This document shows positions 55,210 to 59,193 of a stretch of 64,000 nucleotides of DNA, in pieces (position 1 is the first letter of the stretch; each line of letters starts with the position of its first letter). Location of the stretch: assembly GCA_965116465.1 (NCBI GenBank), contig OZ220687.1:1894321-1958320 (forward strand), given 5' to 3'. Both the position numbers and the translations under genes were made by a program. Source of the stretch: Acidimicrobiales bacterium. GTDB lineage: Bacteria; Actinomycetota; Acidimicrobiia; Acidimicrobiales; CATQHL01. The notes beneath the pieces were generated by a model. It was not told where the DNA came from. It ran no database searches and worked only from the letters and a program-made list of their open reading frames with translations.

Positions 55210-56808
55210 ATGCATGACCTGGTGCTCTCGGGCGGCCACGTGGTGGACGGCACCGGCGGCGCTCCTTTCCGCGCCGACGTGGCCGTGGAGGAGGGCCGCA
55301 TCGCCGCCCTCGGTCCCGCCGGGGCGGCGCGGCGGGTCATCGACGTGTCGGGGTACCTGGTGGCACCGGGTTTCGTGGACATGCACTCGCACTCCGATCT
55401 GGCGCTGCTGACCGAACCCACGGCCGAGGCCAAGGTGATGCAGGGTGTGACCGGCGAGGTGATCGGCCAGGACGGGTTGGCCTACGCGCCGCTGGACGAC
55501 TTCACCCTGGCGGCGGTGCGCACCCAGACCGCCGGCTGGGTCGGCGACCCACCCGGCCTGGACTACGGCTGGCGCTCGGTGGCGGACTACCTGGGCCGCC
55601 TGGAGGCCGCGCCGCCGTCGCTGAACGTGGCCTTCCTGGTGCCGCACGGGAACCTGCGCATGATGACCGTCGGCACCGATGACCGCCCGGCCGGCGACTC
55701 CGAGCTGGCCGAGATGCGCTCCCTGGTGCGCCAGGGCATGGCCGAGGGGGCTCTGGGACTCTCCACCGGCCTCACCTACACGCCGGCCATGTACGCCGGG
55801 ACCGATGAGCTGGTGGAGTTGTGCGCCGAGATCGCCCCGTTCGGCGGCTACTTCTCGCCCCACACCCGCAGCTACGGGCGCGGCGTGATGGAGGCCTACG
55901 ACGAGATGGTCGACGTGTGCCTTCGCTCGGGCGCGCCGCTGCACCTCACCCACTGCCAGGTCAGCTTCCCCGGCAACGAGGGGCGCGCCGGCGAGTTGGT
56001 CGAGCGGTTGGCCGCCATCGACCCGCGGGACCTGGAGATCTCCGCCGACAGCTACTGCTACGTGCCCGGCTCCACGTACATGGCCGCGTTCCTGCCGAAC
56101 TGGGCATGGACCGAGGGCCCCGAAGGTGTGCTCGGGCACCTGGCCGACCTCGACGCCGCCGAGCGGATCCGCCACGAGTTGGAGGACGTCGGCACCGACG
56201 GCTTCCACGGGGCGCTGATGGACTGGTCGGCCATCGAAGTCTCCTCGGTGGGCAGCGAGGAGGGGAGACGCTGGGTGGGCATGCGCGTTGCCGAGATCGC
56301 CGCCGATATGGCGGTCGCACCGTGGGAGGCGGCCCGCCGGCTGATGTTCGACGAGCGGCTGAACGTCAACATCCTCACCCACGTGGGCCACGAGGACAAC
56401 GTCCGGACCATCATGCAGTTGCCGTTCCACATGGGCGGCAGCGACGGCATCATGACCGGCGCCCGCCCCCACCCGCGCGCCTGGGGCACCTTCGCCCGCT
56501 ACCTGGCGCACTACGCCCGGGACGAGGGCATGTTCGACTGGCCGGAGATCGTCCGCAAGCTGGCGGCGCTGCCGAGCCTGCGGTTGCGGCAGTTCGACCG
56601 TGGGCTGCTGCGGCCGGGCTACTGGGCCGACATCGTGGTGTTCGACCCCGACGGCGTGCGCGACACCGCAACCTTCGAGAACCCGCGGCGGCACCCCGAG
56701 GGCATGCCCTGGGTGCTGGTGAACGGCGAGCTGGTGAAGGACGACGACGCCCACACCGGCGCGCGGCCCGGCAGGGTGCTGCGCAGCCAACTCCGGGCGG
56801 CGGCGTGA
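55210..56808 (+). CDS. N-acyl-D-amino-acid deacylase family amidohydrolase
   Basis: PGFVDMHSHSD, GQDG, GLSTGLTY, HTRS, HLTH, GGSDG, HPRAWGTFAR, GYWADIVVFD. Confidence 0.92.
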   Translation: MHDLVLSGGHVVDGTGGAPFRADVAVEEGRIAALGPAGAARRVIDVSGYLVAPGFVDMHSHSDLALLTEPTAEAKVMQGVTGEVIGQDGLAYAPLDDFTLAAVRTQTAGWVGDPPGLDYGWRSVADYLGRLEAAPPSLNVAFLVPHGNLRMMTVGTDDRPAGDSELAEMRSLVRQGMAEGALGLSTGLTYTPAMYAGTDELVELCAEIAPFGGYFSPHTRSYGRGVMEAYDEMVDVCLRSGAPLHLTHCQVSFPGNEGRAGELVERLAAIDPRDLEISADSYCYVPGSTYMAAFLPNWAWTEGPEGVLGHLADLDAAERIRHELEDVGTDGFHGALMDWSAIEVSSVGSEEGRRWVGMRVAEIAADMAVAPWEAARRLMFDERLNVNILTHVGHEDNVRTIMQLPFHMGGSDGIMTGARPHPRAWGTFARYLAHYARDEGMFDWPEIVRKLAALPSLRLRQFDRGLLRPGYWADIVVFDPDGVRDTATFENPRRHPEGMPWVLVNGELVKDDDAHTGARPGRVLRSQLRAAA

Positions 56809-57281
56809 GCACGCCGATCGAACGCCTGCGGGCGGCCAACTGGGAGCTGCCGCCGCTGCCGACCCCGAAGGGCCTGTACGTGCCCGCACGCCGCCATGGT
56901 GATCTGCTGCACCTCAGCGCCCACGGCCCCTTCGGGCCCGACGGCGACTTCACCCACCGCGGCGTCGTGGGCGGCACGCTCAGCCTCGCCGAGGGCCGGG
57001 CCGCCGCGGCGGCCACAGCTCTCAGCCTGCTGGCCTCGGCGGCAGGGGCGCTCGGCGACCTGTCGGCGCTCAGCGGCACGCTCCGGATGACCGGCTACGT
57101 CAACGCCGCCGCCGGCTTCGAGGACCACGCCAAGGTGCTCGACGGGGCGAGCGAGGTGCTCGACGCGGCCTTCGGTCCCGAGGCCCGGCCGGCCCGGTCG
57201 GTCGTGGGCGTGGCGAGCCTTCCCTTCGACCTGCCGATCGTCATCGAGGCGACGTTCGTGATAGGAGCAGACGATGCCTGA
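56805..57281 (+). CDS. Rid (YjgF/YER057c/UK114) family protein
   Basis: PTPKGLYVP, LSAHGP, GYVNAAAGFEDHAKVLDGASE, ARSVVGVASLP; GTGA overlap. Confidence 0.88.
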   Translation: MSTPIERLRAANWELPPLPTPKGLYVPARRHGDLLHLSAHGPFGPDGDFTHRGVVGGTLSLAEGRAAAAATALSLLASAAGALGDLSALSGTLRMTGYVNAAAGFEDHAKVLDGASEVLDAAFGPEARPARSVVGVASLPFDLPIVIEATFVIGADDA

Positions 57282-58422
57282 CCCCACGATCCCCGCCGGC
57301 GGCCTGCTGGACATCCCCACCAGCATCGAGACGCCCTCGCTGGTGGTCGACCGCGCCCGGATGGAGCACAACATCGCCGACATGGCCGCCTATGCGGCCG
57401 GCCGGGGCATCGGCCTGGCGCCGCACGCCAAGACCCACCGCACGCCCGAGATCGCCCGCCTGCAGATGGCCGCCGGTGCGGAGATGCTCTGTATCGCCAA
57501 GCTGGGCGAGGCCGAGGCCCTGGCCGATGCGGGCCTCGACCGCTTCGTCATGGCGTACCCGATCGTGGGGGAGGCCAAGATCGCCCGCGCCCGTCGCCTC
57601 ATGCAGCGGGCACGGATACTGCTCTCGGTGGACTCGTTCGCCGGCGCCGAGGCGCTGGGGGCCGGCATGGCGGCCGCGGGCACCACTGCCGACGTGCTGG
57701 TCATCGTCGACACCGGCTACCACCGTTGCGGCGTGGCCGCCGACGAGGCCGCCGACTTCGGGGCGGCCATCGCGACCCTGCCGGGGCTGCGCCTACGGGG
57801 GCTGATCACCCATGAGGGCCACGCCTACTCCAAGCCCGGCGAGGAGGGCCTACACAACGCTTCGGTCGACGCCGGGGAGTTGATGGTCGCCGCCGCCGCC
57901 GACCTGCGCGCCCGGGGGCTGGACATCGACGTGGTGTCGGTGGGTTCCAGCGCCACCGCCCGGCACACCACCGCGGTGGACGGCATCACCCAGGTCCGCC
58001 CCGGCATCTACGCCTTCAACGACTACGGGCAGGTGCTGCGCGGCGTGGTGGGCCTGGACCGCTGCGCGGCCCGGGTGGTGGCGACGGTGGTGAGCCACGT
58101 CGAGCCGGACAGGGCGATCCTGGACGCCGGCTCCAAGTCCGTGAGCCACGACCGCCTCGGCATCCACGTGCCGGGTGCGCCCGGCGGCTACGGCCTGGTC
58201 GTGGACCTGCCGGGCTGGGAGCTGTACCAACTCTCCGAGGAGCACGGCTGGCTGCGCTGGACGGGCGACGGCCCGCCCGGCGGGTTGACCATCGGCCAGC
58301 GCGTGCAGATCCTGCCCAACCACATCTGCTCGGCGTTCCACATGCTGGGGCAGTCGGAGATCGTCGAGGGCGGCGAGCACGTCGCCACCTGGGTGGCCAC
58401 CGGCCGCGGCGAGAGCCGCTGA
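57274..58422 (+). CDS. Fold-type III PLP enzyme, D-threonine aldolase / D-serine dehydratase (DSD1) family
   Basis: ETPSLVVD, PHAKTH (PLP Lys), VDTGYHRCG, HEGH, VRPGIYAFND, DAGSK, SEEHG, PNHIC. Confidence 0.9.
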   Translation: MPDPTIPAGGLLDIPTSIETPSLVVDRARMEHNIADMAAYAAGRGIGLAPHAKTHRTPEIARLQMAAGAEMLCIAKLGEAEALADAGLDRFVMAYPIVGEAKIARARRLMQRARILLSVDSFAGAEALGAGMAAAGTTADVLVIVDTGYHRCGVAADEAADFGAAIATLPGLRLRGLITHEGHAYSKPGEEGLHNASVDAGELMVAAAADLRARGLDIDVVSVGSSATARHTTAVDGITQVRPGIYAFNDYGQVLRGVVGLDRCAARVVATVVSHVEPDRAILDAGSKSVSHDRLGIHVPGAPGGYGLVVDLPGWELYQLSEEHGWLRWTGDGPPGGLTIGQRVQILPNHICSAFHMLGQSEIVEGGEHVATWVATGRGESR

Positions 58423-58425
58423 GCC

Positions 58426-59193
58426 ATGCGACTCGACGGCAAGGTCTGCATCATCACCGGGGCCGGCTCCGGCCAGGGCCGGGCTGCGGCGCTGCGCTTC
58501 GCGGCGGAGGGAGCGAGCGTGATGATCGCCGAGGTCGACGCGGCGACCGGGGCTGCGGCCGCCGACGAGATAGCGGCGGCGGGCGGCGAGGCCGTGTTCG
58601 TGCAGACCGACGTCAGTTCCGAGGATGACTGGCGCCGGGTCGTGGCCGCCGCCGTCGAACGGTTCGGCGGTGTCGACGTGCTCTACAACAACGCCGCCGT
58701 CGCCCCTGTCGAGGACGGCTCGGTGGTCGACGTCCCTCTGGACACCTGGGACCGCACCCTGGCGGTGAACCTCACCGGTCCGATGCTGGGCTGCCGCCAC
58801 GCCATCCCGGAGATGCTGCGCCGCGGCGGCGGGTCGATCATCAACACGTCGTCGATCCGGGCGTTCGTGGGCGCCAGCCAGCCGATCGACGCCTACACGG
58901 CCACCAAGGGCGCTCTGATCTCCCTGACACGGTCGCTGGCCGTGGTCTACGGGCCCCGGGGGATCCGCGCCAACGTGATCGCCCCCGGCACGATCCGCAC
59001 CCCCATGGCCCTGGTGCACGACGCCCACGGCGATGCAGGAAGTCGGATGAGACTGGCCCGCTACCCGGTCGGCCGCTTCGGTGAGCCCGCAGAGATCGCC
59101 GACCTGGCGCTCTACCTGGCCTCGGACGAGTCGGGCTGGACCAACGGAGCGGTGATGGTGATCGACGGCGGTGCGATGATCAACTACGTCTGA
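58426..59193 (+). CDS. Short-chain dehydrogenase/reductase
   Basis: TGAGSGQG, LYNNAA, YTATK, RANVIAPG, IDGG. Confidence 0.93.
   Translation: MRLDGKVCIITGAGSGQGRAAALRFAAEGASVMIAEVDAATGAAAADEIAAAGGEAVFVQTDVSSEDDWRRVVAAAVERFGGVDVLYNNAAVAPVEDGSVVDVPLDTWDRTLAVNLTGPMLGCRHAIPEMLRRGGGSIINTSSIRAFVGASQPIDAYTATKGALISLTRSLAVVYGPRGIRANVIAPGTIRTPMALVHDAHGDAGSRMRLARYPVGRFGEPAEIADLALYLASDESGWTNGAVMVIDGGAMINYV

Follow-up and report, generated by a model that had tools for sequence, protein, structure and literature searches.

A candidate kinase-free oxidative pathway for N-acylated amino sugars in a sponge-associated Acidimicrobiales bacterium

Among the major sources of carbon and nitrogen are the amino sugars of chitin, glycosaminoglycans and host glycans. 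In the textbook route they are phosphorylated, either by NagK or by a phosphotransferase system (PTS), and are then processed by NagA and NagB. To our knowledge, the only published oxidative route is the ong pathway, whose starting sugar has already been oxidised extracellularly and whose last step is a kinase reaction. The present analysis concerns a stretch of 64,000 nucleotides from an Acidimicrobiales bacterium (contig OZ220687.1, positions 1,894,321 to 1,958,320; hereafter the window) and, within it, a gene array at 50105-61996. Probably together with an SMP-30 lactonase encoded further upstream, this array would encode the enzymes that break down an N-acylated 2-amino-2-deoxy sugar of D-gluco or D-galacto configuration at C2 in the cytoplasm, by oxidation and without phosphorylation, a reading to which we assign a probability of roughly 0.55.

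The ong pathway of Pseudoalteromonas prydzensis ACAM 620 comprises the deacetylase OngB, the pyridoxal 5'-phosphate (PLP)-dependent deaminase OngC, the RidA protein OngD and KdgK (PMC9537276; PMC12017989). OngB, OngC and KdgK convert N-acetylglucosaminate (GlcNAc1A) to 2-keto-3-deoxygluconate (KDG)-6-phosphate, while OngD is essential in vivo (PMC9537276; PMC12017989). OngC also deaminates D-serine and D-threonine, and the pathway has been reported only from Gamma- and one Betaproteobacterium, in a paper whose text contains neither the word "lactonase" nor the word "lactone" (PMC9537276). In the P. prydzensis OngB (PpOngB), Ser292 binds the C3 hydroxyl and Gln298 the C5 hydroxyl of the substrate, while the beta-site ligands, of subtype V, are Cys97, His222 and His252; the metal-binding Cys and the carboxylate-binding Lys254 are reported to be strictly conserved in OngB and D-aminoacylases (PMC12017989). 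The genuine ong cluster recovered from Pseudoalteromonas sp. NC201 encodes, in this order, a TonB receptor, OngC, RpiR, OngB, RidA, an SSS transporter, a PfkB kinase and a GH20 enzyme, and its OngB has the published GNCG, HIK and SSS motifs. On pNC201, an SMP-30/gluconolactonase gene lies directly after ongA within this cluster (L098:15659-16549) and is followed by a PhoD-like gene; its product may hydrolyse N-acetylglucosaminolactone. A cytoplasmic dehydrogenase-lactonase-deacylase-PLP route for amino sugars was not described in any of the papers searched, the ong papers being the nearest.

The centre of the array in the window (55210-59193) consists of four translationally coupled genes encoding a D-aminoacylase-like amidohydrolase (hereafter the deacylase), a Rid protein, a fold-type III PLP enzyme and a short-chain dehydrogenase/reductase (SDR), as identified by Pfam and NCBIfam profile matches (Table 1). 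Read directly from the sequence, the deacylase and Rid genes overlap by 4 nucleotides and the Rid and PLP genes by 8 nucleotides, and a gap of 3 nucleotides separates the PLP and SDR genes. This cassette is preceded by a CUT1-type ATP-binding cassette (ABC) importer made up of a binding lipoprotein, two permeases and a MalK-type ATPase, and is followed by a dimethylformamidase (DMFase)-beta-like gene and a canonical RidA gene, giving ten genes on the same strand bounded at the 3' end by a convergent asd gene. A first-pass annotation, made from the letters of this DNA alone, had described four coupled genes behind a sugar-type ABC importer and no kinase. The profile matches and the gene junctions bear out the first point, and the second holds in the window, where aspartokinase is the only kinase and no sugar kinase was seen; the two 3' genes are additional to that earlier picture.

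In the proposed pathway, the CUT1 system would import the sugar, the SDR would oxidise it at C1 to the aldonolactone, and the lactone would open either spontaneously or through the SMP-30 lactonase. The deacylase would then strip the N-acyl group from the resulting N-acyl-D-aminoaldonate, after which the PLP enzyme would eliminate the 3-hydroxyl and the Rid proteins would speed hydrolysis of the enamine/imine, yielding ammonia and a 2-keto-3-deoxy aldonate. This product would finally be cleaved without phosphorylation, possibly by a dihydrodipicolinate synthase (DHDPS)-like enzyme. We infer every substrate, the order of the oxidation, lactone-opening and deacylation steps, and the final cleavage; the most economical guess for the substrate is an N-acetylhexosamine with D configuration at C2.

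The PLP enzyme combines Ala_racemase_N and D-ser_dehydrat domains, and its Lys53, His350 and Cys352 are invariant in the alignment of its family. Its nearest solved relative is the D-threo-3-hydroxyaspartate dehydratase of Delftia (PDB 3WQC, about 160 bits), with lower scores for D-threonine aldolase (PDB 4V15, about 142 bits) and for D-serine dehydratase of the DSD1 type (PDB 3ANU, about 94 bits). The PLP-binding Lys and the C-terminal metal motif His-x-Cys are found both here (His350-x-Cys352, in NHICS) and in the NC201 OngC orthologue (H380-P-C), and the metal motif is common to both solved dehydratases, whereas the aligned site of the aldolase 4V15 is His-x-Asp (SHVDP). Identity as a D-threonine aldolase was rejected on this difference. 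The first-pass annotation had regarded an enzyme acting only as a D-threonine aldolase or on D-serine, together with a binding protein for ligands other than amino sugars, as a result that would undo its proposal, and the dehydratase motif speaks against that case. The PLP enzyme is predicted to be an aminoaldonate alpha,beta-eliminase (dehydratase/deaminase).

The PLP enzyme does not belong to the OngC clade. It shares 24% identity (61 bits) with the NC201 OngC orthologue, and in the tree a branch as long as 4.7 changes per column, for which SH-aLRT support is 100, lies between the two. Database proteins of its own family are 48-97% identical to it; a search of 200 sampled genomes of the same class gave no close homologue, the best being 38% identical, and a search of plasmids gave only matches of at most 41% identity that belong to another subfamily. 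Of the two Rid proteins in the array, both of the family of OngD, each retains the PAR arginine motif, as PAR(S) in the first and PAR(T) in the second, and the second scores just below the TIGR00004 cut-off of 106 bits. The Rid protein encoded within the cassette is a probable enamine/imine deaminase assisting the PLP step.

The gene neighbourhoods of the PLP family, whose analysis the first-pass annotation had suggested as a check, point to the chemistry of the proposed route. The family alignment retrieved 79 loci, from which 60 dereplicated loci of at least 8 kb, belonging to four or more phyla, were counted, with the sponge group taken once. At a distance of up to 9 kb from the PLP gene, 38 of the 60 loci encode a deacylase of the subfamily seen in the window, 48 a dehydrogenase (of the GFO/IDH/MocA, SDR or medium-chain dehydrogenase/reductase (MDR) family) and 31 a lactonase; 26 encode all three. 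Further recurrent neighbours of the family are Rid proteins and ABC importers of the sugar type. The deacylase-PLP module is found in four phyla, Actinomycetota, Pseudomonadota, Chloroflexota and Bacillota. One gene order, shared by Devosia, Kaistia, Rhodobacterales, Nakamurella and other actinobacteria, is a substrate-binding protein, two permeases, a GFO/IDH/MocA dehydrogenase, the deacylase, the PLP enzyme, a 7-bladed lactonase (PF10282) and IclR; one locus of this form adds a DUF4432 gene, which we take to be mutarotase-like. In Paenibacillus, the order is AraC, SDR, PLP enzyme, deacylase and Rid. This combination of aldose-type dehydrogenase, lactonase, deacylase and dehydratase-type PLP enzyme points to the route as first proposed.

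Three other loci from Acidimicrobiia show a further arrangement, consisting of a monosaccharide-type ABC importer, Rid, PLP enzyme, Rid, SDR, a thiamine diphosphate (ThDP) E1-like enzyme, a fumarylacetoacetate hydrolase (FAH)-family hydrolase, an amidohydrolase, and an SDR with SMP-30. In one of them (L026), the genes from the first Rid, through the PLP enzyme, second Rid and SDR, to the terminal SDR and SMP-30 all lie on one strand. In L026 (3145-8308) and L028 (11589-16755), the PLP-SDR pair is followed by a ThDP E1/transketolase-like enzyme of 785-834 amino acids, the FAH-family hydrolase and an Amidohydro_1/3 protein, which hints at a different downstream fate of the 2-keto-3-deoxy acid in these organisms.

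The deacylase matches the Alcaligenes faecalis D-aminoacylase (PDB 1M7J) over its full length (268 bits, E 1e-78), in keeping with the D-aminoacylase-like fold of the OngB-type family (Wang et al. 2025). Scores are lower for the N-acyl-D-glutamate deacylase Bb3285 (PDB 3GIP, 236 bits) and for PpOngB, the solved GlcNAc1A deacetylase (203 bits). PpOngB residues were transferred through the alignment of the deacylase with these solved enzymes and through direct alignment with the NC201 OngB orthologue. On this basis, the deacylase retains the HxH motif (H59/H61), D412, Y282 and R423, all invariant, which correspond to HxH, Asp368, Tyr285 and Arg379 of PpOngB, as well as both His metal ligands (H218 and H248, for His222 and His252) and the Tyr, Ser and Arg of the acyl/carboxylate site.

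Other positions depart from the published pattern. The beta-site ligand Cys97 is replaced by Asp88, within GQDG as opposed to the GNCG of the A. faecalis enzyme and the NC201 OngB orthologue, and the position of Lys254 is occupied by Gln250 (HCQVS), where the OngB orthologue has Lys (HIK). Of the 120 nearest database homologues, 117 have GQDG, and so do the homologues from the loci with a single exception, which keeps both Cys and Lys. The Lys254 position varies by clade within the subfamily between Gln, His, Thr and Val, with His in the Devosia-type relatives. The prevalence of GQDG therefore indicates a large sister subfamily that is neither OngB nor classical D-aminoacylase. In place of the Ser292/Ser290 pair within the SSS of the OngB orthologue, the deacylase has G287-S288-T289, as in D-aminoacylases, with Thr289 replacing Ser292. 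The Gln298 position lies in a divergent insertion domain that is about 50-65 residues longer than in solved relatives and cannot be aligned there. In the pocket, the hydrophobic Phe191 and Met254 of the A. faecalis enzyme are replaced by Thr and Ser. The homologues of about 530 amino acids carry the database label "D-aminoacylase", and no characterised member was found among the 120. The deacylase of the window is a putative N-deacylase of the N-acyl-aminoaldonate. Orthology of the deacylase and of the PLP enzyme to OngB and OngC was rejected, given the residue changes in the former, and the 24% identity and the long, supported branch of the latter.

The first-pass annotation had also placed a DHDPS-like gene and an SMP-30 gene at 25.4-27.3 kb of the window and paired them with the cassette. 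Pfam confirms the two identities. PDB matches of the SMP-30 protein include the lactonases 7ris and 8djf, and its gene lies 23 kb upstream of the array. When the SMP-30 of L028 is compared with the genome of the window, this protein is the sole close match (50% identity and 292 bits, the next best scoring 84), and in L026-L028 the orthologous genes sit with the PLP module. In the related complete genome G201, only a short open reading frame, an acyl-CoA synthetase gene and the divergent SDR gene lie between the two operons. In G203, also a related complete genome, the genes for DHDPS, SMP-30, HydA, HydB and acyl-CoA synthetase and those from the substrate-binding protein to the deacylase form one same-strand array. 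Because lactonases recur with the module, the orthology to L026-L028 is unique and the operons are close in G201 and G203, the tie of the SMP-30 gene to the cassette is supported; the earlier pairing with a lactonase thus stands on orthology and synteny, and the link of the SMP-30 protein, a candidate lactonase of the route, is fairly well supported by these comparisons. An in-frame TGA flagged inside the matches to the relatives' SMP-30 genes proved to be the genes' own stop codon read through, and selenocysteine was rejected.

The DHDPS-like enzyme has among its nearest solved relatives L-2-keto-3-deoxyarabonate dehydratase and the 2-keto-3-deoxygalactonate aldolase YagE, and from its position in close relatives it might conceivably handle the 2-keto-3-deoxy acid. 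The DHDPS-like and SMP-30 genes are the first of an operon that runs into hydantoinase/oxoprolinase A, B and B genes (27325-33069). Translational linkage joins this pair to the A gene and both B genes across 25425-33069, a combination with no obvious known pathway. The ask-asd stretch (33.5-48.9 kb of the window) is variable among relatives, and the UGSC selenoprotein/TRAP operon, one acyl-CoA dehydrogenase gene and the P450 gene that stand between the hydantoinase genes and the ABC operon in the window are missing from that interval in G201 and G203.

The genome contains five DHDPS-family genes, and searches of it gave no match to the Eda/KDPG aldolase family (PF01081), no NagA above cut-off, no member of the NagB/Pgl family and no GH20. 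Two PfkB genes are present far from the locus (C1:1818583 and C1:599084) and none lies in the window, so that the ong-type pairing of a PfkB KDG kinase in the cluster with a KDPG aldolase in the genome is not seen here. Since Eda, NagA, NagB and GH20 were not found, a kinase-free route would not be redundant. A second, OngC-like PLP gene lies elsewhere in the genome (32% identity and 219 bits to the OngC orthologue). Its kinase-free cluster (C1:2304925-2320419) encodes RidA, an RraA-like aldolase, an SDR, an Amidohydro_2 protein, an M81/MlrC peptidase and a CUT1 substrate-binding protein and permease, and also holds an old-yellow-enzyme fusion and a transketolase-like subunit. The presence of this separate cluster suggests another route in a similar style. 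It also suggests that the PLP enzyme of the window and OngC differ in substrate.

The window has a G+C content of about 70% and belongs to a genome assembled as a single contig (3.53 Mb, 94.5% complete). Sponge metagenome runs from four studies contain at least half of the sampled words of the stretch, and its source is among the sponge-associated Acidimicrobiia. By tblastn synteny, the ten-gene block is conserved in 14-15 related sponge metagenome-assembled genomes (MAGs) at about 75-97% protein identity. This conservation, together with the recurrence of the deacylase-PLP pair in four phyla, shows that the gene arrangement is not due to chance. Promoter and terminator scans gave nothing, nor did an Rfam scan of the 5' region. 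One sponge metatranscriptome run contains 86% of the sampled words of the cassette, a share of words rather than of mapped reads, which faintly hints at expression.

Table 1. Genes of the array and associated genes in the window, with the profile evidence for each.
Feature	Coordinates	Strand	Evidence and remarks
DHDPS-family class I aldolase/dehydratase	25425..26336	+	Pfam DHDPS
SMP-30/gluconolactonase-type beta-propeller	26370..27323	+	Pfam SGL
Divergent SDR oxidoreductase, possible second dehydrogenase	49093..49923	-	Pfam adh_short_C2 190 bits
CUT1 substrate-binding lipoprotein SBP_bac_1, lipobox, Ala-rich stalk	50105..51886	+	Pfam 110 bits
ABC permease 1, BPD_transp_1	52075..53052	+	Pfam
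ABC permease 2, BPD_transp_1	53054..54019	+	Pfam; 1-nt gap from permease 1
MalK-type ABC ATPase, TOBE/OB domains	54044..55138	+	Pfam
D-aminoacylase-like amidohydrolase, 532 aa	55210..56808	+	Pfam Amidohydro_3 110 bits
Rid-family protein, PF14588 type	56805..57281	+	PF14588, PF01042; PAR(S) arginine motif
Fold-type III PLP enzyme	57274..58422	+	Ala_racemase_N + D-ser_dehydrat
Classical SDR, 255 aa	58426..59193	+	Pfam adh_short_C2 222 bits; NCBIfam PRK07231 243 bits
DMFase-beta-like protein, DMFA2_C + Laminin_G_3	59229..61577	+	Pfam; 35-nt gap after SDR
Canonical RidA-like protein, last array gene	61619..61996	+	TIGR00004 103 bits; PAR(T) motif

The importer has the composition of the CUT1 (MalK-type) family, with an SBP_bac_1 protein, two BPD_transp_1 permeases and a single ATPase with a TOBE/OB tail, and the distant PDB matches of its substrate-binding protein are maltose, acarbose and oligosaccharide binding proteins. 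Between the lipobox and the binding domain, this protein has a stalk of about 170 residues rich in Ala, Glu and Gln (50105-50700), which is shorter in the G203 orthologue. The SDR of the cassette has the generic NCBIfam model PRK07231 ("glucose 1-dehydrogenase") as its sole match above cut-off (cut-off 215 bits), although many SDR models score similarly; it is a putative NAD(P)-dependent sugar 1-dehydrogenase. Its orthologues adjoin the PLP gene in four loci (L025-L028), and elsewhere a GFO or MDR dehydrogenase takes that place. The divergent SDR gene, which the first-pass annotation did not mention, lies 181 nucleotides from the substrate-binding protein gene. G201 has an orthologue of it (73% identity), but G203 lacks one, and there the gene immediately before that of the substrate-binding protein encodes an acyl-CoA synthetase. 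The DMFase-like gene, judged by its position, is probably co-transcribed with the cassette, and its product is possibly an additional amidase. A paralogue elsewhere in the genome (C1:2384581-2389947 region; 38% identity, 1013 amino acids) is followed by an SDR and an amidohydrolase gene, downstream of peptide-type ABC ATPase genes, so that a DMFase-like/SDR/amidohydrolase trio occurs twice in the genome.

Several observations weigh against a complete oxidative route for an amino sugar. The substrate-binding protein is only distantly similar to oligosaccharide binders, and no glycosidase is present. The ten-gene operon itself contains neither a lactonase nor a regulator, and the hydantoinase/oxoprolinase partners of the SMP-30 and DHDPS-like genes have no obvious place in the route. 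A DHDPS homologue lies near the PLP gene in none of the 60 distant loci, so that of the earlier pairing, the part concerning the aldolase draws on position in close relatives and is much less secure than that concerning the lactonase. The neighbourhood counts overstate independence, since related genera contributed many of the 60 loci. The lack of the metal-binding Cys and the carboxylate-binding Lys means that the deacylase may have a substrate other than a free aminoaldonate, and for the PLP clade and the deacylase subfamily alike we infer all substrate assignments. Neither the NCBIfam nor the PDB matches assign a specific function to the SDRs; moreover, in L026 and L028 the SDR orthologue is close to the FAH-family hydrolase, while another SDR is paired with SMP-30.

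This last arrangement bears on the alternative that survives best, which we nevertheless consider unlikely, namely an ong-like route for an already oxidised sugar. Here, the ABC system would import N-acetylglucosaminate, a related N-acyl-aminoaldonate or the lactone, generated for example by other organisms' oxidative cleavage of chitin, the deacylase, the PLP enzyme and Rid would play the parts of OngB, OngC and OngD, and the SDR would act after the eliminase. The SDR may act on the 2-keto-3-deoxy acid, which would fit, by analogy with known oxidative sugar routes, because its orthologue adjoins the FAH hydrolase in L026 and L028; we take the FAH family to be one that cleaves 2,4-diketo-3-deoxy acids in such routes. 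However, the window contains no FAH hydrolase, the genome's copies lying elsewhere, and most loci have a GFO/IDH/MocA enzyme before the deacylase and a lactonase, which indicates a reducing sugar as the substrate. The same enzyme triad as in the ongCRBD operon, the SMP-30 gene of the NC201 cluster and the carboxylate-binding Tyr and Arg kept by the deacylase are all compatible with an imported sugar acid, but the separate OngC-like gene may already fill an ong-type role in this bacterium.

It is improbable that the substrate is instead some other nitrogen-bearing polyol or conjugate, such as an aminocyclitol, an Amadori- or opine-type compound or a sponge metabolite, with the amidohydrolase and the DMFase-like enzyme both cleaving amides and the likeness to amino-sugar catabolism being superficial. 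The logic of dehydrogenase plus lactonase implies an aldose, and the dehydratase site found in enzymes for D-beta-hydroxy-alpha-amino acids is complete in the PLP enzyme, even though the deacylase subfamily is uncharacterised with an altered metal and carboxylate site, the array includes the DMFase-like gene and a second RidA (with an acyl-CoA synthetase gene attached in relatives), and the second DMFase-like trio stands elsewhere in the genome. Degradation of N-acyl-D-amino acids with a beta-hydroxyl (N-acetyl-D-serine, N-acetyl-D-threonine or N-acyl-3-hydroxy-D-aspartate), with the sugar importer unrelated, is very improbable: the best solved matches are a D-aminoacylase and D-threo-3-hydroxyaspartate dehydratase and OngC itself deaminates D-serine and D-threonine (PMC9537276), but the importer is of the CUT1 sugar type and translationally linked to the cassette, the recurring neighbours are sugar dehydrogenases and lactonases rather than amino-acid transporters, the deacylase has a polar pocket from which the carboxylate-binding Lys is missing, and the SDR would have no role. 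The same evidence disfavours the N-acyl-D-amino acid substrate that the first-pass annotation had offered as its own alternative.

The preferred reading, an oxidative and kinase-free route for an N-acyl amino sugar, is the one which that annotation had put forward, and it is borne out in part. Its chemistry is well supported by the neighbourhoods, the parallel with ong and the His-x-Cys motif, its lactonase step fairly well and its aldolase step weakly. A more ambitious version of this reading is tentative, and we hold it at somewhat below even odds: a complete cytoplasmic pathway would oxidise N-acetylhexosamines without phosphorylation, by means of a dehydrogenase, a lactonase, an Asp-type deacylase, a PLP-dependent aminoaldonate dehydratase of a new clade, Rid and an aldol cleavage, across four phyla; in this bacterium the route would stand in for the missing NagA and NagB, with the DMFase-like protein as an extra hydrolase and the deacylase as the type of a large subfamily with a changed metal site.

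If the oxidative reading is true, many bacteria, including cultivable carriers of the related cluster such as Devosia rhodophyticola, Kaistia spp., Nakamurella silvestris and Paenibacillus ginsengarvi, would oxidise the amino sugar themselves with no need for a kinase. It would also give functions to two large families whose present annotation goes no further than "D-aminoacylase" and "alanine racemase / D-TA family", and it would explain the use of host-derived amino sugars by a sponge symbiont that lacks NagA, NagB, GH20 and Eda.

In comparison with the ong pathway, the locus encodes together a deacylase of D-aminoacylase fold, a fold-type III PLP enzyme with His-x-Cys and a Rid protein, and the chemistry would be shared, from N-acyl-aminoaldonate to aminoaldonate and on to a 2-keto-3-deoxy acid and ammonia; an SMP-30 lactonase gene accompanies the NC201 cluster as well. 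Unlike in ong, the enzymes are non-orthologous members of other lineages of the same superfamilies, import would rely on an ABC system in place of TonB receptors and an SSS transporter, and the locus contains no GH20, KdgK or RpiR regulator, in a genome without Eda. The window also adds an SDR (in relatives, a GFO or MDR enzyme together with a lactonase), and this added dehydrogenase implies oxidation inside the cell.

Among solved enzymes, the deacylase resembles the D-aminoacylases 1M7J and 3GIP in its HxH, two His ligands, catalytic Asp, Tyr/Ser/Arg and Thr at the Ser292 position, and is unlike them in having Asp for Cys, Gln for Lys, a polar Thr/Ser pocket and a longer insertion. The PLP enzyme shares the two-domain fold-III architecture and PLP-binding Lys of 3WQC, 3ANU and 4V15, and His-x-Cys with only the two dehydratases, but forms its own clade with sugar-gene neighbours.

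Non-phosphorylative oxidative sugar routes, of the Weimberg/Dahms type and for L-fucose and L-rhamnose, likewise employ a sugar 1-dehydrogenase, a lactonase, a 2-keto-3-deoxy acid and a DHDPS- or FAH-type end without a kinase. All of them rely on a sugar-acid dehydratase to produce the 2-keto-3-deoxy acid, a step that would be replaced here by deacylation and PLP-dependent elimination of the amino sugar acid. A known PLP route on a phosphorylated aminoaldonate also gives a 2-keto-3-deoxy sugar acid; its substrate is supplied by a PTS and its enzyme has a different PLP fold, whereas the locus in the window encodes no phosphorylating enzyme. Judged from these sequence comparisons, the system is most likely an undescribed variant of the ong logic, built from different enzyme lineages.

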